64,000 bases of DNA, taken from the NCBI GenBank assembly GCA_903824665.1, contig CAIJXT010000019.1, positions 101,472 to 165,471 on the forward strand. Direction: 5' to 3'. Both the position numbers and the translations under genes were made by a program. The notes under the pieces are model-generated. The model was not told where the DNA came from and did not search any database. It saw nothing but the letters and a program-made list of their open reading frames with translations. Positions 11,440 through 48,406 of the stretch are shown here, piece by piece (position 1 is the stretch's first letter; the number at the start of each line of letters is the position of its first letter). This DNA comes from an uncultured Bacteroidota bacterium (GTDB lineage Bacteria; Bacteroidota; Bacteroidia; Chitinophagales; Chitinophagaceae).

Positions 11440-11447
11440 TACCTTTG
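11440..11447 (+). promoter_or_regulatory. Bacteroidota sigma-A -7 element (TACCTTTG)
   Basis: Matches TAnnTTTG, 10 nt before the ATG at 11458. Confidence 0.6.
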
Positions 11448-11457
11448 CACCTGGAAT

Positions 11458-11730: not shown

Positions 11731-11733
11731 AAT

Positions 11734-12147
11734 GTGAATCCACAGCTCCATTCATCGCCCGTACTTTACTTTGATGGTGTCTGCAACCTGTGTAACCGTT
11801 TTGTACAATTTGTAATACGGCGGGACAGAAAAAAAATATTCTTCTTTGGGCCTTTGCAGTCTGATGCCGGTACAAAGGCAATGCAGCAGGTAAAATTACC
11901 CAGCGACAAGCCCGGAAGTGTGATACTATTCAGCAACGGCAAGTACTACACACGATCAGCTGCGGCACTGCATACCTTTCAATTGCTGGGTGGTGGGTGG
12001 CAACTGCTATTTGTTTTTATTCTGATTCCGCCTTTCATCAGGGACGCCGTATATAACCTGATCGCACGCAACAGATACAAATGGTTTGGCAGGCAGGCAT
12101 CCTGTATGTTGCCGACAGCCGAGACCGCCAATCGTTTTGTTAACTAA
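11734..12147 (+). CDS. DCC1-like thiol-disulfide oxidoreductase (DUF393)
   Basis: YFDGVCNLCN (DxxCxxC), YNLIARNRYKWFGR..C. Confidence 0.9.
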   Translation: MNPQLHSSPVLYFDGVCNLCNRFVQFVIRRDRKKIFFFGPLQSDAGTKAMQQVKLPSDKPGSVILFSNGKYYTRSAAALHTFQLLGGGWQLLFVFILIPPFIRDAVYNLIARNRYKWFGRQASCMLPTAETANRFVN

Positions 12148-12188
12148 TTATTTTTCACTCAGCAATGTTAACTGTCTTAAATTTGGGT

Positions 12189-31500: not shown

Positions 31501-32241
31501 TGTGGCCGGACCCGCTTCGCCCAACACACTTCCGCCTCCGGCTATGGTTGTAATGACACCAGCCGCATCCACTTTCCGAATACGGCCGTTGCGGTTTTCT
31601 GCAATCAGCAGTTGACCTGAATTATTGAAAGCGACACCGATGGGGTGATCGAGTGTAGCAAGGTGAGCCGGGCCACCGTCGCCGACAAAACCCGGCAAGC
31701 CATTGCCTGCGATTGTGGAAATGATGCCCGAAGTGTTTACTTTTCTGACTCTCAGGTTGGCATAATCTGCGATGAAAATATTGCCGAACGCATCGATAGC
31801 AACATCGTAGGGGTTCATTCCGGCTAGCGTTGCCAAACCACCATCGCCACTATATCCACCAGACCCACTGCCGGCAACGATCGTAGTCACCCCACCAGGG
31901 GTCTTTTTTTTGACCTGCTGCCCTGAAACAAAATACCAATTTCCACCAGCATCGAAAACACCCTTTCCGCCGTCTGAAATTGTCCGCAAGATACCTGTTG
32001 ATGGATCAAGCATCCGAGTGCGCCGGCCGGAAATGATGTCGTCACCGAAGTATACTTTGTCTGCAGGGTCTGTGATTACAAAGGAATTGATGACAGACCG
32101 CCCATAAATACTGGCGATAGTATCGTCGCCAATACCACCGGCAAATGTTGTAATAGTTTGTGCTGCAGAAGGCGTAGCTGTGGATGCGTAAATAATAAGC
32201 GTGCATACCAAGGCAAAACGGGTAAAAGAACGGCAACTCAT
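28555..32241 (-). CDS. T9SS surface protein: NHL repeats, cadherin-like domain, Ig-like repeats and CTD
   Basis: Repeated GYSGDGG.A..A...P..IAVD..GN.Y.AD; GGxWSxS..ATV..G Ig repeats; HYPNPASRVLNI..GVYTLTL. Confidence 0.88.
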   Translation of the reverse strand: MSCRSFTRFALVCTLIIYASTATPSAAQTITTFAGGIGDDTIASIYGRSVINSFVITDPADKVYFGDDIISGRRTRMLDPSTGILRTISDGGKGVFDAGGNWYFVSGQQVKKKTPGGVTTIVAGSGSGGYSGDGGLATLAGMNPYDVAIDAFGNIFIADYANLRVRKVNTSGIISTIAGNGLPGFVGDGGPAHLATLDHPIGVAFNNSGQLLIAENRNGRIRKVDAAGVITTIAGGGSVLGEAGPATLARMEPLSIRVNASGEILLSDYTYRRIRKITLAGAIFTVAGNGGYGYAGDGVPATATSVPPDDIAVDGAGNIYLADGTANRIRKISTSGMIISVSGNGLALTGYSGDGGSPLLLQANAIGGIAADGAGNVYFADKNNNRVRMVTASGILKTYAGNGIAGFYGDGGQATAAAIEKPEIIAVDKQGNLYIAMAGGNRVRKVSSSGVITTFAGGGTAGMGDGGPATAAQFSVHAVAVDTAGNVFIADNTLKRIRSVDAATSIITTFAGNGSSTASGDGGPATAAGLNNPIGLAADNKGNVYIAGSTIRKVNAAGVIKSIAAIGSLIAVDTMGNLYCSNNATISRYDIYNYLSVIAGTGLAGYTGDNGSAMAANISAAAITVSPDGKLYFSQQAVAIRSICCLPVIIDKPPVFVKGASTSPVQVCRSSPGVPVDTLLTVTDGDIGDPLTWSVLSGPIHGSLSGFPATAVSTGAAVAPAGVVYTPVSGYSGGDNFRVRISDGTDTAIIQVNLSVVAPSTISISGASNVCVGDTTSPFWVSTTGGTWSASNTNVTIGTAGTVIGVAQGSVTISYSKSTACGLIHATSAVTVNPLPQAQIVPSGSYVCKDAEVTWFGNPSGGYLSSTSGNVSMLSSGRIRGINVGTALITYSFTNSCGVATDTATIQILAPADPGTLSGGGSGCPGDTKVISATVPGGVWSTSDTAIATVDQSGVALIRAAGTAKISYTVTGVCGAVSAVTNVTGSSSPYTGYIIGMASQCMGKLVSFSNPVAGGVWSVADTSIATIDAMGTLTCIAVGTTQVAYSVTDGCGTGVKTANITVLPVPQLTPITGKSVIVAGKTVELRGRAPSGVWSASDSSVVTIDQWGVVTGRALGSAIITYSETASNGCGAFETLAVTVTAKPMAIFNHYPNPASRVLNIRYTKSTAFIGELSLTDVAGKVVATSTFDMPSSDGVTQFSVFGIPNGVYTLTLRSTDGDYTGRVVILE

Positions 32242-32453: not shown

Positions 32454-34694
32454 CTACTGCACAAAAATCTCATCGCAAGCAATCATTGGCTTTTTGTTGT
32501 CGCGGAAGCGCCAGGAAGGCAGGGCTGTACTGTTTGTAGCCGTAACCCGCATATACCTTGCTTTTGCCTTTGCTTCGGCCTGAAAAAGTTTTACCGTTTT
32601 TTCGTAGTGCTCATCGGGTGCCGGATTGGTAAAGGATGCAAATGAGCGATAAGTAATCCCATCATCAGAAACCTCTACACTGATGGCAGGTGGCAGAAAT
32701 ATCCAATGCCGGGGATCGTGGAGAAAGTGCATTTTCAAGCCAGTGATGTTTTTGGCAACACCCAAATCGATGGTTGCCACCATATCTGTGCCATAAAAGC
32801 AAAGCCAATTGTAGCTGAAATCATTGTAACCCGGAGTGCCATCGACAAGTGTGCGACTGCCCTTGGCAGGATAATCTTCGGCAAAAGGAAACTTGAGTGT
32901 AACCTTTGCTCCGGTGGCAATAGTAGGTGTAACACCCGCAGCAAAAATGGCATCCCATTCGGCCATGTATTGGTCCGGGTTGAGGCCACCCTCGGACAGT
33001 TCTGTAACCTTTGCTTTTTTACAATTGGCAACAAAATTTGCAACCTTTTGCCTGAGGCCGGGTTTCACCGACCATGCGCCTTTGTCGTCCTGTACAAATA
33101 CACCGAATTTCTCGACACCATAGAACTTTGCCTGCTGCAGAACAGTGTACTCGAGTGGTAAACGGGCACGAACGATGCGTTCTGCATATTCGGGCTTGTT
33201 GCCTACGGCACCTTCTGCTGCATCGAAAATCTGGCTGTATGCATCGAGCTTGTCGGGAGAGAGGTAGGTGTTCCATTCGTTGACCGGATTGCCATAGATA
33301 TCCAGCTTGCGCTTTGACTGGCCCATGTTGTCGTGTATCTGACCTATGTACTGGAGCATAAATTTTGCAGCAGGGCCATAATAGTCGTTGAGAAAAACTT
33401 CGGTAAGGTCCTTGATATCGGCCTTATCGTCAATAAGTAACCGGGCGGTAAGGTAACTACGCAGTTCTGCCCACTCGCCATAGGTATCGCCACTGCCTTG
33501 CGCAAAAACCCCTTTGATACCATTCTCTTTATAAAACTGCATATTGGGCTGCAGGGTGAGCAGGTTGGGGAAAGGTGCGAGGTAGCTGGTAAACTGGGTG
33601 ATATAGTCCCACACAAAAAGGTTGCCTGTAAGTGCACGCCAAGCCTTCACATCATTACGAAAGCCAGCGGCTGACCCTTCGGTGGTAAGCGGCTGATCGC
33701 GGTAAGCATCGATATTGCTGAGAAAAACATACACATTTGCTGCTGGTTTCAGTGTCTTTGGAGCACGATGGGTGTAGCCATAAGCCAGTGTGGTAATCTT
33801 CTGGTCGGGAAACTCTTTTGCGACACGATTGACGAATTTGATAAGCGAGCCCGCCGGGCTGCCTTGTTCATCGTCTGTTGCCTTACACTTCTCACACTCG
33901 CAATAGCCAATGTCGTCGTTGGGGCTGATGGACCAATACAGCGCATCGGGATTTACGGTTATTCGCTTTCTGAGCTCTGCGGTTGTGATCACAAACACAT
34001 CTTCGTTGCTGAGGCAAAGCTGCGAAGGTTGCCTTACACCTTTCACCAGCGCATAATATTCAGGATGTTTTTTGAAGTACATGCCTGCGGGAACCAGCTT
34101 GTCGTAAGAATGCCCCCAAAGCCCCCAAAGGTCCTCGAACTGCTGCAGCTTATTCCATTCGAGGTATTCGGCATCGCGGGACGCGGGATAATAAGATTCC
34201 CGGTATTCGAATTGTGGTCTTCCCTCCTCTTTAAGGTTTGAAGGAATAATAACCTGCTTGCTCTGGCGTACTATTGCCGGTGCATCAGCTACCTTTCTGC
34301 AACCCAGGTATTTCTCAATAAACGTGTACACACCGTAAATGAGGCCCTTACCACTGCCCCCACAAATGAGCAGGTCTTTGCCCACCATTTGTATGCGGTA
34401 GCTCTCATGGGGCAATTTGCCCAATATAGCCTGCGCCTCTTTTTTTGTGTGCCCGATATAGATCGCATTTCCGATTATGGAACTGCCCTCCTGCGTGATC
34501 AGCAATGGCCTTCCGGACACCCGGCGGATGTAGTCCTGAAGTACTTTGGCAGCCTTCATTTCGGCGGGACTTGCGTCAACAGGAACGATGATAGAATAGG
34601 CGGCATTCTGGTCGGCGATAACCACCTCCTGCGCATTACCGCTGCAAGAGCTCACTGCCAGCAACAACAATATAAACCTGTAAAACAATTTCAT
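32454..34694 (-). CDS. DUF4838 domain lipoprotein with a glycoside-hydrolase-like N-domain and C-terminal F5/8 type C domain
   Basis: LAVSSC lipobox, HPEYYALVKG, LCLSN, SISPND..YCECEKC, TLAY, WDY; C-terminal LVDG..W..F..TIDLG. Confidence 0.8.
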   Translation of the reverse strand: MKLFYRFILLLLAVSSCSGNAQEVVIADQNAAYSIIVPVDASPAEMKAAKVLQDYIRRVSGRPLLITQEGSSIIGNAIYIGHTKKEAQAILGKLPHESYRIQMVGKDLLICGGSGKGLIYGVYTFIEKYLGCRKVADAPAIVRQSKQVIIPSNLKEEGRPQFEYRESYYPASRDAEYLEWNKLQQFEDLWGLWGHSYDKLVPAGMYFKKHPEYYALVKGVRQPSQLCLSNEDVFVITTAELRKRITVNPDALYWSISPNDDIGYCECEKCKATDDEQGSPAGSLIKFVNRVAKEFPDQKITTLAYGYTHRAPKTLKPAANVYVFLSNIDAYRDQPLTTEGSAAGFRNDVKAWRALTGNLFVWDYITQFTSYLAPFPNLLTLQPNMQFYKENGIKGVFAQGSGDTYGEWAELRSYLTARLLIDDKADIKDLTEVFLNDYYGPAAKFMLQYIGQIHDNMGQSKRKLDIYGNPVNEWNTYLSPDKLDAYSQIFDAAEGAVGNKPEYAERIVRARLPLEYTVLQQAKFYGVEKFGVFVQDDKGAWSVKPGLRQKVANFVANCKKAKVTELSEGGLNPDQYMAEWDAIFAAGVTPTIATGAKVTLKFPFAEDYPAKGSRTLVDGTPGYNDFSYNWLCFYGTDMVATIDLGVAKNITGLKMHFLHDPRHWIFLPPAISVEVSDDGITYRSFASFTNPAPDEHYEKTVKLFQAEAKAKARYMRVTATNSTALPSWRFRDNKKPMIACDEIFVQ

Positions 34695-34784
34695 GTCAAA
34701 AAATCTATTTAAGTATTTTGCTGAAAAATCCCGCAGCAATCAGGGCAAATTCTTTCACCGCATTAAAGGGTGTTGCTGTCCCGT

Positions 34785-37676
34785 TTAAAATCTTCGCTGT
34801 AACATGACATAAATGTCATACTGATTTCTGAAAATTGCTTCATTCTGCTTGATATTGTACCAAGACGCACTAATGTTGAACGTGGTAAGGTAGTGTATCT
34901 GGCGGCGGTACCCTACACCACAGCTAATTGTCTTGAATGTGGCAACCTGACTGAGAAAGTAGTTGGTACTGAAATCGTCTGGTACGTTACCATAGCCGGC
35001 TATAGCTGTGAAGTATTCGGTACGGTTCTCGCTCAGGTAATACCTGGTAGAGAATATTGCGGAGTAGTAGGTAGCGCGGATAGAATCGCGGTAAACCAGT
35101 GATTGCTGATATACTTTGAGATTGAGGAAAAAGTCCTTTATCTCCCGCGAAATGCCGACCACGGGTGATGTCATAGTTCCGCCGCTCAATTCCAAATACC
35201 TTATACCCAACTCGCCGGAATATCCCTTGTTGAAACCACGATTGATCGAATACCCCGCTTTAACTCTGGGAAAGATAAACACGTCGGGCGAATAAGCTCC
35301 GAGTGCATAGGAATACCATTTCTTGTTGTGATTGTAGTACAGATCCGATTCGAACTGGAAGCCGGTTCCGGTGGTACGCCCGGCATAGTTGAGCCTGAGG
35401 TTCCAAACACCACGATTAAAACGGCGTGAATACTGCACAGTGGCAATACTATTGATCTTGGGCAGATTGGTAGCATCAACGATACGCGAATGGAGGTAGA
35501 ACAAGCCAATATCATTGCGCAGCCTGTGTGCGAACAACATGGCGGCATAGTCGGTATGCTTGGGGTGAAGCGTCATCTTGGCGAGCGTATCGGCAGTGCG
35601 CCAGGCCTGCTCATAGTTTTTCTGCGCCTCGAATACCTCTGCTTTACGATACAGGAAAAACGGATTCTGCGGATAATAACGTCTTCCCCTATCGAGCAAA
35701 ACAAGCGCAGTGTCGAACTGCTTGAGGTCGTAAAGGAGATTGATGGTGTAATACAACGGGATAGTGTCTTTAGGAGCAACGGCAAGTGCTTCGTAGAATT
35801 CGGCAAGTGCGCTGTCTTTCTTTTCTGCAGTGATGTACTCCCTGCCGGATCCGATGCGCTGGTCTACGTACGCACCGCGGTAACGGGAGTTGTAAGGGAA
35901 CATTCTATACAGCGGTCCCGATATCTCGTAAGCGGTGCGGTATTGTGCAGCCTCGGCATACACCAGCGATTTGCGAAACAGAAAGTCTTTAGACTCGGGG
36001 TAATATTTAAGACCCTGGTCCACGAAATATAATGCGGAGTCAAAGTCTTTAATGGCACTCTCGATATTGATGATATAGTTGAGCGCATCTACATTGTCGG
36101 GTTGCTTATCGAGGACCTCCTTAAGTACCCTGAGTGTATTGTAATAATCGTCGTACTGCATGGATTGCCTGCCTGCAGCGAGCGACTGTTCTATGAGGCT
36201 TGCCAGATATTGCCTGTTTTCAGGGTGTGCTTCGAGCAATTGTTTGGATATCTGTGCGGCATCAGAGTAGCGCTGGTAGCCCTCGTACACAACGGCTTTT
36301 TTGAACAGCAGATTCTCGTCGTTTGGATAAAATGAAAGCGCCTCATCAATGGTACGCAATGCATCATCAAATCGCTTCTGAGCGGTATATACATTGATCA
36401 GGTAGTTAATTGCAGCAACATTAGAACGGTCGTAAAAAAGTACGGACTTTAGTGCCACAACGGCACTATCGTACTCCATTTCATTCATAAATTGTTTTGC
36501 GGCCAGCGTGCGCAACTCAAGATAGTTGGCGCGGTTTGGCGCGTTGGGATTGTCTTTAAACATCATTTCTGCGATCTGCGATGCTGCGCCATATCGCTTC
36601 ATACTTTCGAGGATGCCCATTTTCTTTTTCAGCAACTCGTAATCGGCAGAATTCTGTTTCAATCCGAAGTTGATCCATTGCAGGGCCTCGTTGTACATGC
36701 CTCTGCTGAACGCTATACTGATGGTATAATTGAGTGCTTCCCTGTTTCCGGGCTCGCGCTCCAGAATACCGCTGAACAGCAGGTAGGGGTCTGTGTTCAT
36801 ATAGAACCGACCCGCAGTAAGGCGGATGTAGGTACTGAGCCGCAACACATCACTGTTTGTAGGGAACAATTTCAGCAGCTTATTCACAACTTCTATGGCC
36901 TCTACATAACGTGACATTGCCTCGAGTATAGATACCTTTTTCATGAGGTACTCGTAGGAATTGGGTGTAGACTGCAGGGCTCGGTTGGTGTAAGCCAGCG
37001 AACTTTCGTAGTTGCCCGAGCGGATATCGAGCGCAAATATGGCTGTAAGGGCTTCTTTATTCAACGGATCCTGTTCGAGCACAGCTTCATAAGCCCGCTT
37101 GGCGATCTCTATGTACCCCCTGTGGGAATATTGCCGGGCTACGGACAGCTTGTAATCGAGGTAAACACTTCGGATAAAGGGATCGGCAGAAAACCGCTCG
37201 AACAGGTAATCTGCCAGCCGGTTGCTTTCGATCCAGTCTCCCATTTTTACGTAGATATTCAGCTTCTTCAGTAGTATGTCGCGATCGTTGGGGAAATACT
37301 TCAAGCCCATATCAGCATACTCCAATGCCTGCAGGTAGTTACATGCCTGATCCTCCATATTTACCAGGTATATGTAGGCATCCCTGTACCTGGGGTTCTT
37401 CTGAATTACATAGTTCAGTTCAAGGCGGGAGCTATCTACCTTGCCGGCAAGCGCGAATGCGTGACCGAGCAAAAGGTGGATATCCAGGTTCTTTGGGGAG
37501 ATGTCGATAGCCTTGTTGCACAAGTTGATGGCTTTCTGATAGTGTTTCAGCTCTATCTCCCGTTTGGCCTCGTTGTACAGATTATCTGAAGATTCGATCA
37601 TCTTCAGCCATTGGCCCTGCGCCTGAACACTGCACAGGAGCACCATTAAAAATATCAACAGGGGGGTTAATCTCAT
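34785..37676 (-). CDS. TPR-repeat protein with a C-terminal YaiO-type outer membrane beta-barrel (PgaA/NfrA-like architecture)
   Basis: Signal peptide, about 700 aa of TPR-like helical repeats, about 240 aa of alternating aromatic strands ending LQRRF. Confidence 0.8.
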   Translation of the reverse strand: MRLTPLLIFLMVLLCSVQAQGQWLKMIESSDNLYNEAKREIELKHYQKAINLCNKAIDISPKNLDIHLLLGHAFALAGKVDSSRLELNYVIQKNPRYRDAYIYLVNMEDQACNYLQALEYADMGLKYFPNDRDILLKKLNIYVKMGDWIESNRLADYLFERFSADPFIRSVYLDYKLSVARQYSHRGYIEIAKRAYEAVLEQDPLNKEALTAIFALDIRSGNYESSLAYTNRALQSTPNSYEYLMKKVSILEAMSRYVEAIEVVNKLLKLFPTNSDVLRLSTYIRLTAGRFYMNTDPYLLFSGILEREPGNREALNYTISIAFSRGMYNEALQWINFGLKQNSADYELLKKKMGILESMKRYGAASQIAEMMFKDNPNAPNRANYLELRTLAAKQFMNEMEYDSAVVALKSVLFYDRSNVAAINYLINVYTAQKRFDDALRTIDEALSFYPNDENLLFKKAVVYEGYQRYSDAAQISKQLLEAHPENRQYLASLIEQSLAAGRQSMQYDDYYNTLRVLKEVLDKQPDNVDALNYIINIESAIKDFDSALYFVDQGLKYYPESKDFLFRKSLVYAEAAQYRTAYEISGPLYRMFPYNSRYRGAYVDQRIGSGREYITAEKKDSALAEFYEALAVAPKDTIPLYYTINLLYDLKQFDTALVLLDRGRRYYPQNPFFLYRKAEVFEAQKNYEQAWRTADTLAKMTLHPKHTDYAAMLFAHRLRNDIGLFYLHSRIVDATNLPKINSIATVQYSRRFNRGVWNLRLNYAGRTTGTGFQFESDLYYNHNKKWYSYALGAYSPDVFIFPRVKAGYSINRGFNKGYSGELGIRYLELSGGTMTSPVVGISREIKDFFLNLKVYQQSLVYRDSIRATYYSAIFSTRYYLSENRTEYFTAIAGYGNVPDDFSTNYFLSQVATFKTISCGVGYRRQIHYLTTFNISASWYNIKQNEAIFRNQYDIYVMLQRRF

Positions 37677-37793: not shown

Positions 37794-39347
37794 CTAATTT
37801 GCAGCAGCAACCTCTCCCTTCTTTTTGGGCTGCATACCAAAACCCTGCCGCTGCATGTTGCCCCAGACGTGTTTACGCCCGGTAATAAAGTTGAAGTACC
37901 CTTTGATTGCAAAGAACATGATGAGCGGATGGTAAATAAATGGCTCCAGAAAAGCCATCAGACACAATCCAATAGTTTCGCCCCAGGTTTTGTAGTACTT
38001 AAATGTGATCTGGTCCCACAACAGCGCCAGTGTAGTGATCATTACCGAGTAGGTATAAACGAACACAATGAGAATGATAGCAAAGGGCCAGTTGATCTGC
38101 CCGGTAACAATCAGGTATATATAGAACAACACACCGGTAAACTCTACGATAGGTGCGAGCAATTCGTACATGAACGCATAAGGGAATACAATGAGTCCCA
38201 AACGCCCGTAACGCGGATTGAAGATGATCTTGCGGTGGATACTCATGATCTGTGCCAATCCTCTGCCCCAGCGTGACCGCTGCCGGCCAAACACCTTCAA
38301 CGTTGTAGGTCCTTCGGTCCAGCAGAGGGTACTTGGTACGTATTTAACAGCGTACTTTTTCTTATTGTCCTTCATGTAGGCGCACATACGTGTCACCATG
38401 TCCATATCTTCACCAAAGGACTTGGAGTCATATCCGCCGGCTTTTACCGCTACTTCCTTGTCGAACATACCCAGACCACCAGATACATTGGGAACGGAGT
38501 TGATGAGGTCCCAGCCCATTTTGCCGAGCATGTAAGCACGTATGTACTCCATCTCCTGAAAACGCGGTATGAGCCTGCGTGGCGGGCGCACACGTATCAT
38601 AAGCCCCTCGTCCACATCGCAAGAATTGACCATGCGCAAAGTGGCCCCGGACGCGATGACCCTTTTATAATCTTCGACAATGTGCACATATCCGCATTCG
38701 GTACAGGGATCACCCACCTCTTTCACCTTGGTGGTCTCTTCGTCCATAAATGGCTTGATGAGTTTTATCAGCGTGTCCTTATCGAGAATACAATCCACAT
38801 CGGTACACAAAAAATACTCGAAAGAGGAGATATTGATACCGGCATTGGATGCGTCGGCCTTGCTCTTGCCATTTACTTTATCAACCACAACCAGCTTGTC
38901 GTAGGCGCGGTTGGTAGACTTGAAAATACGCTTTATGGGTTGACAGTTGAGCTTCTCTCTGAAGGCATACTCTACGTGCACCAATTCAAACTCATCAATG
39001 AGTTTTTCCAGTGTTTCGTCGGTACTGCCGTCATTTACAATTATCACCTCAAACTTGGGATAGTTGAACGTAAGCAGCGACCGCACATTGGAGATAATGG
39101 TAACACCCTCGTTGTACGCGGGCGCAATTACTGATATACCCGGCGCCAGGGGAGACTCTACGATAATATTAAAATCGATGGATGCATTTTTCTTCATGTA
39201 CCGCTGAATGGACATCAGCGACATGATGGCCAGCAGAGCGTATGCCATAAGCAGCGAGGTTCCGTAAATGAACACAGCAGACTGGTAGAACACACCTACT
39301 GTGTCCCAAAACGCACCACCAGAAAAAAAACTATAAAAAAAACCCAT
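37794..39347 (-). CDS. Processive GT2 glycosyltransferase (PgaC/IcaA-like), copy 2
   Basis: APAYNE, NDGSTD, KSKADA, TDVDC, GEDM, QRSRW; N- and C-terminal TM helices. Confidence 0.9.
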   Translation of the reverse strand: MGFFYSFFSGGAFWDTVGVFYQSAVFIYGTSLLMAYALLAIMSLMSIQRYMKKNASIDFNIIVESPLAPGISVIAPAYNEGVTIISNVRSLLTFNYPKFEVIIVNDGSTDETLEKLIDEFELVHVEYAFREKLNCQPIKRIFKSTNRAYDKLVVVDKVNGKSKADASNAGINISSFEYFLCTDVDCILDKDTLIKLIKPFMDEETTKVKEVGDPCTECGYVHIVEDYKRVIASGATLRMVNSCDVDEGLMIRVRPPRRLIPRFQEMEYIRAYMLGKMGWDLINSVPNVSGGLGMFDKEVAVKAGGYDSKSFGEDMDMVTRMCAYMKDNKKKYAVKYVPSTLCWTEGPTTLKVFGRQRSRWGRGLAQIMSIHRKIIFNPRYGRLGLIVFPYAFMYELLAPIVEFTGVLFYIYLIVTGQINWPFAIILIVFVYTYSVMITTLALLWDQITFKYYKTWGETIGLCLMAFLEPFIYHPLIMFFAIKGYFNFITGRKHVWGNMQRQGFGMQPKKKGEVAAAN

Positions 39348-39379: not shown

Positions 39380-40858
39380 CTATGTTGCCGCCGGAGTAGG
39401 ATTTGGTGTACTCTTAGGCTTATTATCGGTTGTTTTCTTGAAACCTGCCCGCTGCATATTGCCCCAACTGTGTTTGCGATTGGTAAGCTGAAAATAGTAC
39501 CCTCTCAATGCAAACACTACAATCAGCGGATGGTAAATAAGCATCTCCACAAACACCATGAGCACAATACGCACTACATCTTTCCAGGTTTTATAATACT
39601 GAAAGGTGAGCTGATCCCACAGAACGGACAATGATGATATCATCACAGAATAGGTATACACGAAAATGAGCAGGATAATGGCATAGGGCCAATTGACCAG
39701 ACCAAAGTAGATAAGGAAGAGGTAATAGATGATACCCAGAAACTCGATGACCGGTGCCATGAGCTCAAAAAAGAAATTGTAGGGGAACACAATCATACCT
39801 ACCCTGCCATATGCCGGGTTGAACAACATTTTCTTATGGGCGAGCATCAGCTGCAACAATCCTCTGGCCCACCGGGTACGCTGGCGCATAAAGATCTTTA
39901 CTGAGGTGGGGCCTTCGGTCCAGCAGAGTGTATTGGGTATGTACCGAACGGCTGCATCGATTTTGTTGTCGTAGACGTAACGCGACATGCGCATACGCAA
40001 CTCCATATCTTCTCCAAAAGATGCCGGATCGTATCCGCCGGCTTTAACAGCAATCTCTTTGTCGAACATGCCCAAACCTCCGGACACGTTGGGTACGGCA
40101 TTGATATAACTCCAACCCATTTTGCCGAGCACGAACGAGCGAATGTACTCCAGCTCCTGAAACCTGGCCAGCAATGGCCGGGGTGCTTTGATCTTCAACA
40201 AAACGCCCTCATCTACCTCGCAGGAATTTGCCATACGCAATGTAGCACCGGTGGCGATCACACGTTTGTGTTCTTCCTCCATCATGGGCCTTATGAGCAT
40301 CTGTAGGGTTTGCTCATGCAGAATACAATCCACATCTGTACAAAGGAAGTAAGGGAATTGAGAAACATTTATACCCACATTGGTCGCATCTGCCTTAGAC
40401 TTTCCATTTTCTTTGTCAACTACAACCAGCTTGGCATAAGCCTCATCCTTCGATTTGTATACGCCTCTCACCGGTTTGGCTGACAGTTTTACGTCGTAAG
40501 CGAAATCTACCTTTACCAGCGAAAACTCACGGACTACTTTCTCCAGCGTATCATCCGTACTACCGTCGTTGATGATGATCACCTCATAATTGGGATAGTC
40601 GAAAGTGAGTAGCGAACGTACATTACTGATGATGGTCAAACCTTCGTTGAAAGCGGGTGCGATCACCGAAATGCCGGGAGCCAGGGGTGAACCAACAATA
40701 ACCTTGTAGTCGGTATAACTCTCTTTGCGCAGAAACAGCCTTATATTCAGGAAAGAAAGCACGGCCAACATGGCGTAAATCATCAACAAGGCGACACCGT
40801 ATATAAATACGGTGGTTTCAAAAAAGGCCGAGGCATATTCTACGAAAGTTTCGCCCAT
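39380..40858 (-). CDS. Processive GT2 glycosyltransferase (PgaC/IcaA-like), copy 1
   Basis: APAFNE, NDGSTD, KSKADA, TDVDC, GEDM, QRTRW; ATG overlaps the upstream TGA. Confidence 0.9.
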   Translation of the reverse strand: MGETFVEYASAFFETTVFIYGVALLMIYAMLAVLSFLNIRLFLRKESYTDYKVIVGSPLAPGISVIAPAFNEGLTIISNVRSLLTFDYPNYEVIIINDGSTDDTLEKVVREFSLVKVDFAYDVKLSAKPVRGVYKSKDEAYAKLVVVDKENGKSKADATNVGINVSQFPYFLCTDVDCILHEQTLQMLIRPMMEEEHKRVIATGATLRMANSCEVDEGVLLKIKAPRPLLARFQELEYIRSFVLGKMGWSYINAVPNVSGGLGMFDKEIAVKAGGYDPASFGEDMELRMRMSRYVYDNKIDAAVRYIPNTLCWTEGPTSVKIFMRQRTRWARGLLQLMLAHKKMLFNPAYGRVGMIVFPYNFFFELMAPVIEFLGIIYYLFLIYFGLVNWPYAIILLIFVYTYSVMISSLSVLWDQLTFQYYKTWKDVVRIVLMVFVEMLIYHPLIVVFALRGYYFQLTNRKHSWGNMQRAGFKKTTDNKPKSTPNPTPAAT

Positions 40859-42012
40859 CAATTCTTAATTAGTGGGTTTAAACAATGCTTGATAATCAGC
40901 TGATTCTCCTCGTAGGTCATTTCCATCAATTCCTCAACCAGCAATCTGGAATTCTGCGAATTGTGCCTGATAATGGCTCGTGCGGCGTTCATCCTGATAT
41001 CGAAGTTGGAGGAATAGAGAAACTCGGTTTTGAGAAACTCAAGATACTTGCCCGAAGCAATTGCACCCATGGCTTTCAATATCTCTAACTGACAATTCAG
41101 CGGCTGATGGTTGTAAATCCGGGACATTTTTTCTTCTGCAGCCTCGGCAGACAATTTACCCAAACAGCTGATCGCATCTGCTCTGAAATAGTGGTCTTTA
41201 TTGTTTAGCAACTCCATAACGGCCGGGATAGCACTTTGCTGATCGTAATGTGCTATCAACTTCAGACAAAAAGATACAATGCTTTTGTTGGTAGAGTAAC
41301 TCACCCAACGGGAGAAGTTGGGAATGGCGATATCTTTGGTTGTGGTGATAATCTTGAACATTTCCAGCTGGTCCCAGGGCAGCAATGGCTCTGTAGCGAT
41401 GTCAAAAAACTTGAACGGTTCATTTTTGCTGAGCTGAATATAGGCGTTGCGGGCCGCTGCACGGAGCGATGAATTGGTACTGTTGGTAAGCGGCAGGATG
41501 GTTACGTCTGAAATGGTAATATCCATCTGGGTCAGCTCAACCACCGCTTTGATCTTTTTCTCCCAGCGCATGGTCTTCATTTTCGCAAAGGAATCTTTCT
41601 GCAGATCCATGTCGATGTAAAGTTTGCGCAACAACTCACCCACCTCTCCCCTGAAATTTTTCCGGTATTGAATCAGTGTATCGATAAGTATCTGTCTTAC
41701 GAATGGCTTTTTGTATATTTTATTGGAGAGTGCTACCGGGTCGAATTCGATTTCTTCGATGGGTATATCCCGTCCCATCTGTTCATTGAGCAAAACCTGC
41801 TCAGTGATCATTTCCTCGATGATAGGACTGATGAAAGCTACCCTTTTCTCGTGTACATAGCTGCGGTAACGCTTGTACATAATAGCACTGTATGCCACAA
41901 TAGTAGCCACAATAGCAATAATAATGAATGCGAGTGCTATCTCAATGAAAAGTGGGAGCAAACTAAATTGCTCATACGCCTGGAATAAGAGGTCGACCAG
42001 ATCTTTCCACAT
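40858..42012 (-). CDS. Membrane-anchored HEAT-repeat protein
   Basis: One N-terminal TM helix, then helical repeats (LRAAARNAYIQL, FRADAISCLGKL, IRMNAARAI). Confidence 0.8.
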   Translation of the reverse strand: MWKDLVDLLFQAYEQFSLLPLFIEIALAFIIIAIVATIVAYSAIMYKRYRSYVHEKRVAFISPIIEEMITEQVLLNEQMGRDIPIEEIEFDPVALSNKIYKKPFVRQILIDTLIQYRKNFRGEVGELLRKLYIDMDLQKDSFAKMKTMRWEKKIKAVVELTQMDITISDVTILPLTNSTNSSLRAAARNAYIQLSKNEPFKFFDIATEPLLPWDQLEMFKIITTTKDIAIPNFSRWVSYSTNKSIVSFCLKLIAHYDQQSAIPAVMELLNNKDHYFRADAISCLGKLSAEAAEEKMSRIYNHQPLNCQLEILKAMGAIASGKYLEFLKTEFLYSSNFDIRMNAARAIIRHNSQNSRLLVEELMEMTYEENQLIIKHCLNPLIKN

Positions 42013-42021
42013 GTACTGATA

Positions 42022-42423
42022 TTATTTTTTCTTGGTAACCAACTTAGTATTGCTGTTCCTGTTGGCGAGTAATTTTCTGATTCTGATCATCAATTCTCCT
42101 GCCATAATTGGTTTTTTCAGGTAATCGTCTGCGCCGAGCCTGAATGCCTCCGTGATTGTTTCTTCGTTTCCGACAGATGAACAAACGATAATACCTACAT
42201 GACGCTTCAGCATATTACTTCTCAAACGACTCACCACCTCAAGTCCGTTGGCATAAGGCATCATCAGGTCGGTAATAACTACATCATATTGTTCGTTATC
42301 CAACTTTTCAAATGCTTCTTTGCCGTCCTTGGCCGTAATTACTTCATGCCCGTCTTTTCTCAGGATATTCCTGATCGCTTTAAGCATTATATCATCGTCC
42401 TCTATTACTAATATGTTCGACAT
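42022..42423 (-). CDS. Single-domain response regulator (receiver only)
   Basis: ILVIEDD, TDLMMP (phospho-Asp), SS, ADDYLKKP; no output domain. Confidence 0.92.
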   Translation of the reverse strand: MSNILVIEDDDIMLKAIRNILRKDGHEVITAKDGKEAFEKLDNEQYDVVITDLMMPYANGLEVVSRLRSNMLKRHVGIIVCSSVGNEETITEAFRLGADDYLKKPIMAGELMIRIRKLLANRNSNTKLVTKKK

Positions 42424-42816
42424 AGCTGTTGAAGGCTTTTCACTCTAAATTTGACAGTGTTGGTTCCGACACTTTACAGTGCCGTGTTTTCTAACGCAAA
42501 TATCCGCTTTATTATCTTAACAATATCAGCATTTACATGACATTAACTAAAAAATGCTAATAGTTAACACACAAGGAAAATTCAGTTTATACAGGGCTTT
42601 CCAGCTGTTCGCGCCTAGGTACAATCATTTGCATCTAAACAATATTAACTATTTCGGGCGAGGATATCGCAAAATAAATTTTCTAAATTTTAAATTGCAG
42701 ATAAAAAACCGACAACATATCAACTTTAATATCACATAAACAAATTGACTGTCAGCTACTTGTGTAGCAAAACCTGTTCTAATGACGTTTAAAGACGGTA
42801 ATCAACCATTTTCAAT

Positions 42817-43830
42817 CTATGATTCCAGCAGGTCTACCAACTCTTCTACACGATTTGCTGTAACAACTCGAGGAAAAGGCAGATTCTTTGAAGCCATGAT
42901 CTGCTCTACTGCCTGTGCAATAGCCACCGGACTGGCCTGATTGAAGGTCAGTGTGGGGGTGACTACATCATGAACATATTCTAGATCTGATGCCAATATT
43001 TTCATACCGCTTTCGGCAGCCTCTATAAGGGGTAAGCCAAAACTCTCCATAATAGACGGAAAGATCAGATAAGGACAATTGAAGTAAAGGTCTCTTGGAT
43101 CCACATAAACGTGGTTCACAATCCGGGCACCTTGCTCATTCAGCTGTCTTACACGTTCCAGAAAACCGGGTGCAGTGTCATCAATCGTTACATGTAGTTT
43201 GGGCGTTTTACCCTGCGACAACAAGTAAGCCCAGGCATCCAGCAGGGCCGGGTAATTTTTTTGAGGCGATGGGTTGCTGATAAACACAAATTCGTCAGCA
43301 GGACGCTGATCAAACGGCAGACCGCCACCGGCGTACTTTTTATTGTCGTAAAACGGTATGGTGAGGCAATGTGCGTTATCCTTTAACCCGAGTGCTACCA
43401 ACTGATGCACCATGTGTGGTGTCTGCACAATGTAATAGCCGGTATTCCGGTTGTACATTTTGATAAACAGATACTTGATGTATTGCCCCCAAAACATTCG
43501 TTTGAATTTCTGTTTTGGTGCTTCCAGCAATTTCTGGTTATGCATATAGGTATAAACAGGAACGCCCATATTTACAGGCGGCGGAATGTTTGCAAAGCAA
43601 AACACCTTGCTGAACCTGCCCTTCTCCTTTTTGTAATACTTGATCCTGTCACTTATTTTATTGGGAATAACAATATAATTTGTTGTCAGCGCGGCGGGTC
43701 GTTCGAAGCGCGGATCGAGCAGAAAAAAGAAATTATCGCGCCCCGGACGCTTGAGTATGGTTTCAATAAGGTATTGCAGCAGTACGGCTCCCCCACCCTT
43801 GTTAATGAATAATGCATCGATCAGTACCAT
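42817..43830 (-). CDS. GT4 (GT-B) glycosyltransferase
   Basis: QKNYPALL, FPSIMESFGLPLIEA (EX7E); start overlaps the upstream stop. Confidence 0.88.
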   Translation of the reverse strand: MVLIDALFINKGGGAVLLQYLIETILKRPGRDNFFFLLDPRFERPAALTTNYIVIPNKISDRIKYYKKEKGRFSKVFCFANIPPPVNMGVPVYTYMHNQKLLEAPKQKFKRMFWGQYIKYLFIKMYNRNTGYYIVQTPHMVHQLVALGLKDNAHCLTIPFYDNKKYAGGGLPFDQRPADEFVFISNPSPQKNYPALLDAWAYLLSQGKTPKLHVTIDDTAPGFLERVRQLNEQGARIVNHVYVDPRDLYFNCPYLIFPSIMESFGLPLIEAAESGMKILASDLEYVHDVVTPTLTFNQASPVAIAQAVEQIMASKNLPFPRVVTANRVEELVDLLES

Positions 43831-44615
43831 CAGCCTTTTTCTTTTTTTAACCGGTTGAATTGTCTTTTTATTTTTAGAAACTGCGGATAGGACGGAGTGG
43901 TATAGTGACCGCCCTTACCCTGGGGCTTTGCGTTGAAAAAATAGCGGTCAAAATGGGCAAATACGGTGAGCAGGCCCCGGACTGAGGCGTCGAAAAGGCG
44001 GGCATAGTTAAAAGCTACGGTATCATCCAGTGTTGACCTGAACACAATCGGCACTTTTTCCTGCAGCACAATTTCACCGGTATCTATGTTCTTGTCAATT
44101 TTGTGAATGGTATAGCCTGTCTCTGCTGACCCATTGTAGAGTTGCCAGATGATACTTTGGGCATTCTGGTATTGTGGCAATATTTCGTGGTGTACATTCA
44201 GCATACCATATCTGGGAATACCGAACACTCTGGCAGAAATATACCCATTGCCGAGGCTGAGCCCGATATCGGCACCTGACTCGCGAAACAATTGCTGTGT
44301 CAGTTCGCTGTTCGTGTACGGTACGTTCCGGAAAGGAATATTGTGCTTTTCGCAGAACATACGGGCACTTTCAATAGTACAATACTGTTTTACGTCTTCA
44401 TTATACCATTTACGCATCTTTATACCGTTGAGCGCACCTAAAGGACCAATCTTGAATACTTTTTTAAGCCGCCTGATTCGGTGATTCTTCCGCACCGGTG
44501 GCGGCCCAGTGCTTACCACCACCATAGCGATCTCAATGCCGGCAGCACCGTATAATACCGGCAGGTGGTGCCCGGTGGTGCCGTACTCAGAAGTAGTAAG
44601 TATGATCACTTTCAT
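43830..44615 (-). CDS. Formyltransferase family protein (sugar N-formyltransferase-like)
   Basis: LNVHHEILPQYQ, TGYTIHKIDKNIDTGEI: the catalytic Asn/His/Asp pattern of the formyl_trans_N fold. Confidence 0.8.
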   Translation of the reverse strand: MKVIILTTSEYGTTGHHLPVLYGAAGIEIAMVVVSTGPPPVRKNHRIRRLKKVFKIGPLGALNGIKMRKWYNEDVKQYCTIESARMFCEKHNIPFRNVPYTNSELTQQLFRESGADIGLSLGNGYISARVFGIPRYGMLNVHHEILPQYQNAQSIIWQLYNGSAETGYTIHKIDKNIDTGEIVLQEKVPIVFRSTLDDTVAFNYARLFDASVRGLLTVFAHFDRYFFNAKPQGKGGHYTTPSYPQFLKIKRQFNRLKKEKG

Positions 44616-45490
44616 AGCAGGCCCGGGGGATAAATGTTGTTTGTGGTGTTTGCGTTCTTCGCGTTATTGACAAGGAAGTATAGTATGTGATTGATGTTCC
44701 AACCCAGAACAGTGTGATCGCGGCGGATACACAACTGATCTCTGGCAATTGGCGACACCTGAGCGATATGGCATCCACGCTCTGCCGTAGCACAGGTGGT
44801 GAAGCCAGCCTCGAAAACCGCCTTACGCCCCACATTGCTGAAGTGAAAAAACCTGCCAAAAGGAAATGCAAAATGCTGCACGCCTCCGCACCGCTCAGTG
44901 AGTATCTTGAATGTCTGGTGCATATCGTCCCTGATTTGCTGTTCCCCGGTTGCTGCAATGTTGATGTGCATCATGGTATGGCTACCAATTTCGTGGCCCC
45001 ATGCCTGCAGGCGGCTCACCTCTTCCCAGTTGAGAAACGCAACCGGAGGGAACCTCAATGTATCGGTGCAAAACTTGCTGATCCGGTCAAAATCTGTTTC
45101 ACCTACTATACCCGGATTGACAAAGAAACAAGCTTTTGCCCCATACTCGTTGAGGATTTCAGCTGCCCTGAGGTTATTATGCAAGCCGTCGTCAGAGCTA
45201 AAAGTAATATAAGGTCTGTCGATATTGCCAGACAAAACCCTGTTTACCGCCTCGCCATAGCTGATAAAATGATGGTCGCGACTTAGTATCCTGAGCAGCT
45301 CATGAAAATGTTGTTCCTCGTCGGCAAAAAGGTGATGAATGTACAGGAACTGTACCCGGGGTTTCTTCAGCAACTGCTGGTTTGCGAGCGCAGCCAGCCC
45401 TGTCAGTGCCAGGTTACGGGCATAACTTTTCAGGGTTTTCTTCTTCAGCTGTTCCAGTGCGCCGTATGATGTTATCAGTCTGCTGTCCAT
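44612..45490 (-). CDS. Polysaccharide deacetylase (NodB/CE4)
   Basis: FSSDDG, HEIGSHTMMH, FAFPFG. Confidence 0.88.
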   Translation of the reverse strand: MDSRLITSYGALEQLKKKTLKSYARNLALTGLAALANQQLLKKPRVQFLYIHHLFADEEQHFHELLRILSRDHHFISYGEAVNRVLSGNIDRPYITFSSDDGLHNNLRAAEILNEYGAKACFFVNPGIVGETDFDRISKFCTDTLRFPPVAFLNWEEVSRLQAWGHEIGSHTMMHINIAATGEQQIRDDMHQTFKILTERCGGVQHFAFPFGRFFHFSNVGRKAVFEAGFTTCATAERGCHIAQVSPIARDQLCIRRDHTVLGWNINHILYFLVNNAKNANTTNNIYPPGLL

Positions 45491-45520
45491 TTTTGATATC
45501 TTACTTCACTTTTGCTGGTT

Positions 45521-46624
45521 TTATGCCCAGGGTATCTCCGGTTTACTTTTCCCATTGTATACGCTGTCCAGTATTTGCAGGTAGTATAGGGCACCGGCTT
45601 CGCCACTTAGCGATCTGCCGGCCAGCTCTTTTATGGTTTCAGGGTCTGCAAACCCATTGCCAGCGAGCATGATATCTATAGCTTTGCTGCAACTACCCTG
45701 CTCACACCAGTCAAATGTAACGCCATTATACTTCTCTTTTATGGCCCAGCTGACACCACACTTATTGCTGCAAATCGCTTTCAGACCATTGAGCAGCCCT
45801 TCGCTCACTATTACGCCCCATCCATCTTTTTTCACACTGGGCAGCACCACCCAGTCGTACCGGGCGTATTGCTGTATCAGTTCGTTGTACGGGAGAAACG
45901 GGAAGAAATTTACTTTTCCGGCAGCACTGCTTTGCGCTACAAACTGCTTCAGGGCAGCCTCATCGGGTCCGCTGCCATAGATGTCCAATGAATACGCTCC
46001 ATTTTGAGCGGAGGCCAGCTCTGCAACAAACCGCGAAATACCTTTTCCCTCCTCTATCCGGCCGGCATATATGATCCGTGTTGTTCCGGCAGGTGGTGCC
46101 GGTTTTGCGGCAGGCACAGGTACACTCACAAAGTAAGCCCATGGAAAAACCCGATCTGCCCTAAACCCGAGACGGGTATAAGTAGCCACACCCTCTCTGC
46201 CAACAGCCAGAAAAAAATCGATATGCCGGAAGTAAAACAAACGCAGGTATTGATATTTGAGATCGCGGAGTTTTCCTTTTATTCCCGAACGTTCATACGG
46301 TTCAGACAAGGAGCCCATCCTGGCCTTTCGCTTTGCCCCTTCTTCCAGGGCCATAGTCATCATCTGCCCCACCCGAATGCCACCCAAAATATGCACAGCA
46401 TCTTTGTTTGCATCAAATATTTCGCAAATTTCCTGCTTTGATGGACTCACTGTTATCGAAACGCCTTCAATTTTGGGTACTTCCCAACCCATGTTCTTCC
46501 GGTAAGGAGTGATTTCATTTTCAACTACCATCAGTACCTTCTGTACTTCCGGCTGCTTTGCCAGTGCCTCCAGAAAGGTTTTCTGATGAATGCTGATAAT
46601 ACCCTGCCAGAAAATAAGTGTCAT
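45521..46624 (-). CDS. GT4 (GT-B) glycosyltransferase
   Basis: IYAGRIEEGKG, VLPS..DGWGVIVSEGL. Confidence 0.85.
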   Translation of the reverse strand: MTLIFWQGIISIHQKTFLEALAKQPEVQKVLMVVENEITPYRKNMGWEVPKIEGVSITVSPSKQEICEIFDANKDAVHILGGIRVGQMMTMALEEGAKRKARMGSLSEPYERSGIKGKLRDLKYQYLRLFYFRHIDFFLAVGREGVATYTRLGFRADRVFPWAYFVSVPVPAAKPAPPAGTTRIIYAGRIEEGKGISRFVAELASAQNGAYSLDIYGSGPDEAALKQFVAQSSAAGKVNFFPFLPYNELIQQYARYDWVVLPSVKKDGWGVIVSEGLLNGLKAICSNKCGVSWAIKEKYNGVTFDWCEQGSCSKAIDIMLAGNGFADPETIKELAGRSLSGEAGALYYLQILDSVYNGKSKPEIPWA

Positions 46625-46666
46625 ACCTGATATATTTCAATTTGAGTGCCGCCGGCAATGGTACTG

Positions 46667-48145
46667 CTAAGGATTGATTTTGTAAATGCTGCAGGAATAG
46701 CTTTCGCTGATTTTGTAGGGCAACTTCTGAATGAGCCGGTGAAACAGGCTTTTGCTATCCTGAATTTCTACCGTGGCTACCAGCGAATAATTGTTTTCTG
46801 CAAGTTTCTTCTCATAATATTCACGGGCGCCACTATACTTGTTTACAATAAAGTAGTCGTACTTGTTGTCAAAGAAATACTTCATTTTTTTGTCCCAATT
46901 ATCTCCGTTCTCGCCCAAACTGATAAACGAGCAGTTGTTGTTTCGGGAGATGTAGTAGTACTGAAAGTCACCCACTACACGCGAGCCGGGTTGTATGTGT
47001 TTTGCTATGAGCGATGCGTTGTAATTGGGATCGCGCTGCTGCATACTGGAAAAGATAAATAACGCCTTGAAAATAAATATCATGCCGAAGAAACACCCAA
47101 CCGCATAAGTAGCAATTTTGAATGGGCGGCTGCTGTACCATTGCATGGTTACTCCCACTATGAGCATCATAAGAAAAGGATCGGCCAGTGCAAAATAGCG
47201 CCCGGACAAACCACCTGTAACTACCAGCAGGAAGGAAATGATGACGGGAACAGTGATCAGAATTAAACTGCTCTGCTGCTTTATTGCTCTGTTTTTCACA
47301 AGTATGAGAAACGATAGCAGTGCGTAAGCATATATAACAATGTAATAACTCCATCTGAATTTGGAACCCAGGCCAACGTGCGTCTGTACCAGTTCTGAAT
47401 GGGTATTGTAGTAAATATAATTAGCAATACTGCCAAATGCCCAATAGATCCAGATATAGTAAACGGCGATAAAACCCACGAAAAGGGCGGCATATTTCGG
47501 GAAGACATATGTCATTCTCCGTCCGGTGTTTTCGCTGTCCCACATTTCGTAAAGGAAGCCAAAAATGTACACCGAAAAGCCAAAAAGTATACGGGGCGTA
47601 GTGAGTACTGCACCTGCAAGCAAAACCCCTGCACCCAGCGCAAATGGCAAAAAACTGCGCACGGACCCGGGTACAGCACGGACAAAAACAAGGTATGACG
47701 CCAAAAAAAAGAACAATGTCATAAAGTCCATGCGGCCCGAATGCAGGAACTGATTAAAATTGGGTTCGAGCGCTATGATGCCAATAGTAAATATGGCTAC
47801 GTGCTGGCTGAATTTAAGATGCCTGCAGATCTTGTAAACCAGCCATAGGTCTATCAGGCCAAAAATGAACCCATTGAGCCGGATATTGAAAATTCCAAAA
47901 CCGATGGTCTTGATTACAAATGCCTGAAAAATAAAATACAATGGCCCGTAAACATATTTCTGATCTGGCAATACCAGAATCCTGTTGGTTTCGTAAAAAG
48001 TATGATCCTTTGCATATGACTCTGCTATAGCGGCAAAAGATACCTCGTCGAACCAGGGAATAGGTGAGTAAATCAGCGTAATAAGATGGTAAACAATATA
48101 TACCGCTAACGATGAAATTAATACTATTTTTAATTTTTTGTCCAT
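46667..48145 (-). CDS. GT-C fold membrane glycosyltransferase (ArnT/PMT-like)
   Basis: WFDE motif after the first TM, more than 10 hydrophobic segments; start placed at MDKKLK. Confidence 0.75.
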   Translation of the reverse strand: MDKKLKIVLISSLAVYIVYHLITLIYSPIPWFDEVSFAAIAESYAKDHTFYETNRILVLPDQKYVYGPLYFIFQAFVIKTIGFGIFNIRLNGFIFGLIDLWLVYKICRHLKFSQHVAIFTIGIIALEPNFNQFLHSGRMDFMTLFFFLASYLVFVRAVPGSVRSFLPFALGAGVLLAGAVLTTPRILFGFSVYIFGFLYEMWDSENTGRRMTYVFPKYAALFVGFIAVYYIWIYWAFGSIANYIYYNTHSELVQTHVGLGSKFRWSYYIVIYAYALLSFLILVKNRAIKQQSSLILITVPVIISFLLVVTGGLSGRYFALADPFLMMLIVGVTMQWYSSRPFKIATYAVGCFFGMIFIFKALFIFSSMQQRDPNYNASLIAKHIQPGSRVVGDFQYYYISRNNNCSFISLGENGDNWDKKMKYFFDNKYDYFIVNKYSGAREYYEKKLAENNYSLVATVEIQDSKSLFHRLIQKLPYKISESYSCSIYKINP

Positions 48146-48406
48146 GGTCCTATTGTTGCAGCCCCGCCTGCCTGTAAAAACGGCAAAAGGTAATTTGGCA
48201 ATAAAGATAGAAATTTTTCGTTCCGCGGTCCGATGGTTCTGCAAAAGCAATGTGTTTTGAAACAGACTCGGTCTTTAGCTGAAATACTGTCACTGGAAAA
48301 CAGGCATAGGTGGAAATCAAAAAAGACGGTTTCCACACACTACTAACAACCTGCATTTTAACGTTATAATGCTGACTTTTCAATACTTTTTACCGCCTTA
48401 AAAGAG

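Follow-up and report, generated by a model that had tools for sequence, protein, structure and literature searches.

A stand-alone receiver and a membrane-anchored HEAT protein as candidate regulatory subunits of an exopolysaccharide synthase machine in Bacteroidota

Here we describe an operon on a 64,000-nucleotide stretch of contig CAIJXT010000019.1 (positions 101,472 to 165,471 of the forward strand), from an uncultured bacterium of the Chitinophagaceae. The whole stretch is called the window below, and its own numbering is used throughout. Six minus-strand genes follow one another head to tail, encoding a stand-alone receiver, a HEAT protein, two family 2 glycosyltransferases (GT2a and GT2b), a tetratricopeptide repeat (TPR)/YaiO barrel, and a DUF4838 lipoprotein. 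Our analysis somewhat favors a role for the receiver and the HEAT protein as regulatory and accessory subunits of a synthase-dependent machine for exopolysaccharide, of a kind widely found in Bacteroidota, with the direct partner of the receiver left open. The two genes together occupy positions 40858–42423, exactly where an earlier interpretation of the DNA had placed them. That sequence-only reading had proposed that binding of the phosphorylated receiver to the HEAT protein may control polymer synthesis at the enzyme.

The receiver (42022..42423, minus strand) is a 133-aa protein that matches Pfam PF00072 Response_reg over residues 4–115 with 102.2 bits (cut-off 30.2, E 2.4e-29). The Pfam scan indicated no output domain and no other family above its cut-off. 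The phosphorylation pocket is complete, with D9, D10, the phospho-acceptor D52 (in the sequence VVITDLMMP), S82, Y101, and K104-P105. These positions are well kept among 98 operon-linked orthologues: D9 in 96, D10 in 87, D52 in 97, Ser or Thr 82 in 97, Tyr or Phe 101 in 96, and K104 in all 98. By its predicted fold, its pocket residues, and the lack of a second domain, the protein classifies as a stand-alone response regulator receiver, and the intact pocket and missing output domain that had been noted before are both borne out. At some related loci (L042, L045, L047, L050, L051, L053, L057, and L058), two tandem stand-alone receiver genes precede the HEAT gene.

The HEAT/ARM protein (40858..42012, minus strand; 384 aa) scores 34.4 bits against Pfam PF13646 HEAT_2 (cut-off 27.7). 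It contains a single hydrophobic segment at approximately residues 21–45, followed by the basic sequence KRYRSYVHEKR, and no second membrane segment was found. It therefore resembles a single-pass inner-membrane protein, in keeping with the membrane anchor first proposed for it. An AlphaFold2 model built from a 98-sequence alignment (predicted local distance difference test score, pLDDT, 95.7; predicted TM-score, pTM, 0.85) contains one long helix spanning residues 21–74, then an all-alpha solenoid spanning residues 103–383. This model supersedes a poor one computed from the single sequence (pLDDT 50.5). The protein was also compared with phycobilin lyase and NblB-type proteins, but its scores of 19.6 and 19.5 bits for CpcE and NblB are far below the NCBIfam equivalog cut-offs of 330 and 300 and reflect generic repeat similarity.

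We also examined the orientation of this protein in the membrane. Among 98 family members, the 20 residues that follow the hydrophobic segment contain on average 5.4 Lys and Arg, compared with 0.76 for the preceding 15. This positive-inside bias holds in 96 of the 98 sequences, and just one of them has a second hydrophobic segment. Longer HEAT relatives carry a SPOR domain (P0165, P0172, P0188, and P0200) or a LysM domain (P0228 and P0244) N-terminal to the membrane helix, with a cleavable-looking signal peptide ahead of these domains and an Arg/Lys run after the helix. Since SPOR and LysM domains bind peptidoglycan, which is periplasmic, and one helix separates them from the HEAT region, the HEAT region is placed in the cytoplasm. 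The protein is thus predicted to be N-out/C-in with a cytoplasmic solenoid, in agreement with the charge bias, and the periplasmic HEAT domain that would have spoken against the sequence-only reading is not supported. The cytoplasmic part (approximately residues 75–384) is also extremely conserved, with a conserved surface at approximately residues 170–260. Given the domains found on its relatives, the HEAT protein may in addition help to place the synthase with respect to the cell wall or septum. Extensions of the 30 long family members that were scanned consist of SPOR, LysM, further HEAT repeats, or nothing known. The HEAT proteins of L118–L120 reach 693–931 aa, and some relatives are extended far beyond the C-terminus by additional HEAT repeats. 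At one metagenome locus, a CotH-domain protein (L108:3456-4769) is encoded between the YaiO gene and a LysM-HEAT gene.

The HEAT gene is closely joined to the synthase gene that follows. Its TGA stop codon shares one base (the A) with the ATG of GT2a (aatTGATGggc), and the receiver stop is separated from the HEAT ATG by 9 nt. Across related loci, an ATG that overlaps the HEAT stop is the commonest layout (n=50; offsets of -1, -4, -8, or -11), and at 22 further loci the ATG lies <=12 nt from the HEAT stop. Translational coupling of the HEAT protein to the first GT2, as claimed earlier, is thus consistent with the TGATG overlap here, but the identity of that partner as a "first" GT2 is lineage-specific, as approximately two dozen close relatives have a single GT2. 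GT2a (39380..40858, minus strand) is 492 aa long when read from its ATG (position 40858), and GT2b (37794..39347, minus strand; 517 aa) is the copy kept in all relatives. The two are paralogues with ~60% identity. Both match GT2 families in Pfam and contain processive-type motifs (NDGS, TDVDC, GED, and QRTRW in GT2a; NDGS, TDVDC, GED, and QRSRW in GT2b), along with one N-terminal and three C-terminal hydrophobic, membrane-like segments. Close relatives have one to three GT2 copies, with three in L057 and L058. GT2a is missing from approximately two dozen of them, often with a gap of 60–1500 nt after the HEAT gene (L024, L027, L030-L032, L035, L039-L046, L048, L050-L053, L055, L056, L068, L070, and L071). 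Because of these absences GT2b can be regarded as the core synthase, and GT2a is, by its distribution, apparently a lineage-specific duplicate.

We examined how consistently these genes occur together, first among close relatives. With one genome per species, 74 Chitinophagaceae loci were collected, from Nemorincola, Flavipsychrobacter, Taibaiella, and Chitinophaga. The receiver gene is directly 5' of the HEAT gene in 72/72 of the loci that have upstream sequence, and the order receiver-HEAT-GT2(1–3)-TPR/YaiO-DUF4838 is strict wherever the contig continues. The module looks degraded at one locus, L074 from Chitinophaga sedimenti, where the matches to the receiver, HEAT, and GT2 (9558-13425) are all partial and far apart. 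When 1.84 billion representatives were searched exhaustively with HMMER, 120 HEAT-family members were recovered at E<1e-30. A second search for homologues, which was word-based (alignment A2), gave mainly close orthologues. Of 401 evenly sampled Bacteroidota genomes, 70 have a match to the HEAT profile and 82 have a match to GT2b (E<=1e-40).

Two distant sets were then compared. The first consists of 20 genome loci and five metagenome loci with HEAT identities of 21–45%. GT2 always immediately follows HEAT in this set, and a stand-alone receiver of 113–157 aa is present in the cluster in 24/25, the contig of the exception ending at the HEAT gene. The second set consists of 20 loci from genomes with GT2 but without a HEAT match in the whole-genome search. 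A local hidden Markov model search nonetheless revealed a divergent HEAT-family open reading frame just before GT2 in 18/20, and Pfam identified a 19th (L150). The 20th, L155, has a right-sized unannotated gap where its sister locus L154 carries the HEAT gene, and a HEAT gene is inferred there. A receiver is found in 19/20 of this set, and the remaining contig again ends at the HEAT gene. Over all distant loci the receiver is in the cluster in 43/45. No natural case of a GT2 cluster with the receiver but without HEAT, or with HEAT but without the receiver, was found in the sample.

This co-occurrence, which had been named as a check on the proposed switch, comes out in its favor. The 4.73-Mb window genome encodes 16 stand-alone receivers, or about one per 296 kb. 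Chance adjacency is rejected when that background rate is set against 43/45 receivers in neighborhoods of ~17 kb despite changes in gene order; the loci are phylogenetically related, and therefore no formal p-value is given. The receiver and the HEAT protein are very probably dedicated parts of the synthase machine, as judged from these gene neighborhoods. HEAT-GT2 appears to be the tightest pair in the module.

A receiver of this kind need not touch the machine at all. Many single-domain receivers act as phosphate sinks or shuttles, and this one could be a relay intermediate or sink for a kinase pathway whose output is transcriptional, at this operon or at others. Relatives do encode multistep relays with several REC domains nearby, and one locus (L138) has a LytTR-type regulator in its vicinity. 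The stand-alone receiver, however, is conserved across the 45 distant loci, whereas their clusters share no conserved DNA-binding regulator. Phylum-wide retention of a sink within a structural operon, with kinases coming and going, would also be hard to explain. We consider this possibility quite improbable.

Several relatives carry kinase genes beside the receiver. A HisKA-HATPase-REC-Hpt hybrid kinase is encoded directly upstream in L118, L120, and L127. A PAS-HisKA-HATPase-REC-REC protein is encoded next to the receiver in L121 and L126, and a REC-HisKA-HATPase protein plus a CHASE3 hybrid kinase in L152, L154, and L155. In L105, the stop codon of a stand-alone 104-aa histidine phosphotransfer (Hpt) gene overlaps the receiver start. 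Because kinase or Hpt genes adjoin the receiver in these relatives, the receiver there is taken to be where a genuine His-Asp relay ends. Elsewhere in the window genome, contig C9 (95889-96679) encodes a stand-alone receiver of 136 aa directly followed by a stand-alone Hpt of 122 aa, and this receiver is the genome's second-best match to the operon-receiver profile. The C9 pair may be part of a relay feeding the operon receiver, which we offer as a lead rather than a finding.

To our knowledge, cyclic di-GMP (c-di-GMP) switches on all of the synthase-dependent systems for exopolysaccharide that have been studied well, those for cellulose, alginate, Pel, and poly-N-acetylglucosamine (PNAG). The receptors in such synthase systems include the PilZ domains of BcsA and Alg44 and the degenerate GGDEF domains of PelD and PssE (PMC8461298). 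The operon described here resembles these systems in having a dedicated, operon-encoded module that would receive a signal and gate polymerization. In contrast to them, it sits in a genome without PilZ or GGDEF: none was found in the window genome, which is 99.4% complete, in a search that gave matches in control genomes and did not include MshEN or BcsE GIL. Within the 401-genome sample, GGDEF is present in 212 genomes, just 2 of them from the window's own class, and neither GGDEF nor PilZ was found in any of the 32 genomes of that class that bear the receiver-HEAT-GT2 trio. Since the class, as sampled, almost entirely lacks GGDEF, a synthase-dependent system within it is not gated in the classical way. 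Lacking PilZ, a degenerate GGDEF or PelD-type receptor, and genome-encoded cyclases, the operon does not appear to belong to the c-di-GMP-gated synthases.

One outlying genus provides a partial link to the PelD and PssE arrangement. In L136 (4907-6532) and L139 (4567-6354), the operon-type receiver forms the C-terminal part of a fusion with REC-GGDEF-REC architecture. Both proteins have a degenerate GGDEF motif (GRWEADTF and GRWTSDTF), with the RxxD kept five residues upstream, as it is kept in PelD and PssE. A role for c-di-GMP at these loci is doubtful. The fused degenerate domain is the sole GGDEF in the L136 and L139 genomes, and a reading of the fusion as a PelD-type c-di-GMP receptor was dropped for this reason.

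Taken with the architecture of the operon, these observations can be arranged into a mechanism. The machine would be made of one to three PgaC-like processive GT2s, a TPR/YaiO barrel, and a hexosaminidase-like lipoprotein with DUF4838. The overlap of the HEAT stop with the GT2 start would allow the two proteins to be made in step. In the HEAT-GT2 complex that we propose, the membrane helix would lie against the synthase helices and the cytoplasmic solenoid beside the catalytic domain, comparable to PgaD with PgaC. The stand-alone receiver would be the last acceptor of a His-Asp phosphorelay, whose kinases are encoded beside the receiver in relatives. Phosphorylation of Asp52 would alter the binding of the receiver to HEAT-GT2, in the simplest case through docking on the HEAT solenoid, and this change in binding would switch polymerization on or off at the enzyme. 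Such a phospho-switch would replace c-di-GMP, which the organism appears unable to make or sense through the usual domains. Post-translational control through the phosphorylated receiver is, in our assessment, probable. Direct docking of the receiver on the HEAT solenoid is more tentative, a plausible arrangement that falls somewhat short of likely.

The main competitor for that docking site is the synthase itself. In Myxococcus xanthus, the single-domain response regulator EpsW, once phosphorylated, activates the phosphoglycosyl transferase EpsZ by direct contact, post-translationally (PMC12802240). As in the operon here, EpsW is a phosphorylatable single-domain receiver encoded with polysaccharide genes. 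It acts on a biosynthetic enzyme of the membrane, below a dedicated signaling system, as the receiver here would, and the pair is the closest mechanistic precedent. The two systems differ in that EpsW-EpsZ belongs to a Wzx/Wzy pathway, acts on a phosphoglycosyl transferase, has no HEAT partner, and takes its input from a chemosensory (Dif) system. The host also differs, being a proteobacterium-like myxobacterium with c-di-GMP signaling. By analogy, the phosphorylated receiver could act directly on GT2, with the HEAT protein serving as a constitutive co-subunit or as a localization or tethering factor. The fixed adjacency of HEAT and GT2, next to a receiver gene that is mobile in the cluster, fits this arrangement; the receiver lies before HEAT, before YaiO (L105, L134, and L135), or at the operon end (the second cluster of L123, L130, L131, and L132). 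The SPOR and LysM domains on HEAT relatives would likewise suit a protein that tethers or localizes. On the other hand, the receiver gene sits immediately before HEAT throughout the close loci and in most distant ones, HEAT solenoids are typical protein-docking surfaces, and the conservation of the cytoplasmic part goes beyond the needs of a passive tether. Direct action on GT2 thus appears rather unlikely.

The HEAT protein could instead be a brake on the synthase, or a factor for chain length or termination, that the receiver releases or reinforces. The sequence data leave the sign of the effect unfixed, and small inhibitory partners of glycosyltransferases exist, such as HfiA for HfsJ in Caulobacter. 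However, the strict translational coupling and the universal co-occurrence of HEAT and GT2 look like an obligate subunit rather than a dispensable inhibitor, and a brake is in our view very unlikely.

Several observations weigh against a phosphorelay that gates the synthase through the HEAT protein. No kinase or Hpt is adjacent to the operon within the window, and the five Hpt matches of the window genome are all on other contigs. Among the 30 long HEAT-family members, no natural fusion joins the receiver to HEAT or HEAT to GT2. Genomics also cannot tell HEAT from GT2 as the partner of the receiver, because the receiver moves while the HEAT-GT2 adjacency is fixed. The fold of the HEAT model is no functional lead, as Foldseek against the PDB gave generic repeat matches only (alphaRep, ARM, importin, and PP2A repeats), from designed or eukaryotic proteins. 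Finally, the absence of GGDEF is a property of the class and is not particular to carriers of the trio. Gene content, topology, conservation, and kinase linkage are observed, whereas we infer the HEAT-GT2 complex, the protein that the receiver contacts, and the direction of its effect. Of the phosphorylation switch as first proposed, the dedicated and co-inherited parts, the cytoplasmic HEAT domain, the phosphorelay of relatives, and the lack of GGDEF and PilZ all speak for it, while the docking partner, action after translation, and the sign stay at the level of inference. The fullest form of the proposal, a distinct phylum-wide class of synthase-dependent polysaccharide machines in which a multistep phosphorelay ends in a receiver docked on GT2-bound HEAT and phosphorylation gates polymerization, is put forward tentatively, as an idea with slightly less than an even chance of being right.

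The remaining operon genes define the type of machine that would be controlled. The outer-membrane exporter candidate (34785..37676, minus strand; 963 aa) consists of a signal peptide, a long TPR region, and a C-terminal YaiO-type beta-barrel. It matches Pfam TPR_19 (E 2.6e-37) and YaiO (E 1.1e-28), as well as NCBIfam OMP_YaiO_dom (61.2 bits, cut-off 32). An identity as the PgaA export porin (TIGR03939) was rejected at 51.8 bits vs a cut-off of 366.65, as was a PgaC/IcaA identity (TIGR03937) for the synthases, with GT2a at 107.7 and GT2b at 114.3 bits vs an equivalog cut-off of 422.3. The last gene (32454..34739, minus strand) encodes a probable lipoprotein glycoside hydrolase of 761 aa, with a GH20b-like N-domain, a DUF4838 domain (E 1.9e-90), and an F5/8 type C domain. 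Its true start is probably the Met at ~34694 (MKLFYRFILLLLAVSSC), which would be followed by a lipoprotein-type signal. With a processive membrane GT2, a TPR/barrel exporter, and a periplasmic polymer enzyme, the operon is predicted to belong to the synthase-dependent class of exopolysaccharide secretion systems.

The hydrolase also provides some indication of the product. DUF4838 is the catalytic domain of GH163 and GH185, which are hexosaminidase-like and use the acetamido group of the substrate in catalysis (PMC10570127). This chemistry and the weak resemblance of the GT2s to PgaC suggest a beta-linked polymer that contains N-acetylhexosamine. In a second type of cluster (L117-L120, L122-L127, and L133), DUF4838 is replaced by a large PF00884 membrane protein of the sulfatase/LtaS/phosphoethanolamine-transferase superfamily. 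The PF00884 protein is fused to GT2 (1144–1260 aa) in L127 (9052-12486), L130 (4177-7959), L128, and L129. The replacement suggests that the polymer of this subtype is modified.

The largest gap in the gene string, 393 bp (42424..42816, minus strand), lies 5' of the receiver gene and is likely the promoter region of the operon. A scan for sigma-70 promoters and terminators gave fewer sites than in shuffled sequence, and no promoter was assigned. Beyond this gap, a separate upstream string on the minus strand (window 42817-48250) encodes a GT4, a formyltransferase-like protein, a polysaccharide deacetylase, a second GT4, and a PMT_2 (GT-C) protein. We place this string outside the conserved module because the GT4 homologue of relatives sits several kb off, on the opposite strand. 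Just downstream of the operon, on the same strand (28555-32241), is a gene for a 1228-aa NHL/beta-propeller and Ig-domain protein with a type IX secretion system (T9SS) C-terminal sorting domain.

The overall plan of the operon is shared with the Pga, Bcs, Pel, and Alg systems, but its accessory set, made up of the YaiO barrel, DUF4838, HEAT, and the receiver, differs from theirs. In the E. coli PgaABCD system, the PgaC-PgaD complex is stabilized by c-di-GMP (reviewed in PMC8461298). The operon resembles PgaABCD in its processive membrane GT2, membrane co-subunit, TPR and beta-barrel exporter, and periplasmic polymer-processing enzyme, and in control that would be exerted at the enzyme. Unlike PgaABCD, it has a YaiO-type barrel, DUF4838 rather than the PgaB deacetylase, and a one-helix HEAT solenoid in place of the two-helix PgaD. 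The signal here would be a phosphorylated receiver rather than c-di-GMP. Two-component input also acts on polysaccharide in Vibrio fischeri, where SypE, which combines a receiver with serine kinase and phosphatase domains in one protein, acts on the STAS protein SypA of the Syp polysaccharide system. As proposed here, this input controls polysaccharide below the level of transcription, but SypE-SypA operates in a Wzx/Wzy-like pathway with no HEAT protein and no GT2 synthase. We found no description of a receiver-HEAT-GT2 module in the full-text literature searched, a body of text that mostly excludes subscription journals.

The receiver and HEAT protein on this synthase provide a testable hypothesis for matrix control at the level of the enzyme, in a class whose sampled members mostly lack c-di-GMP synthesis domains. 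The module is present in approximately a fifth of the sampled Bacteroidota genomes, tractable genera included, and is open to standard genetics. If the hypothesis is true, this would be a second case, in a different type of pathway, in which a polysaccharide enzyme is the direct target of a single-domain response regulator. It would also be the first processive GT2 synthase gated by phosphorylation, and a functional replacement for c-di-GMP in a class that lacks it.

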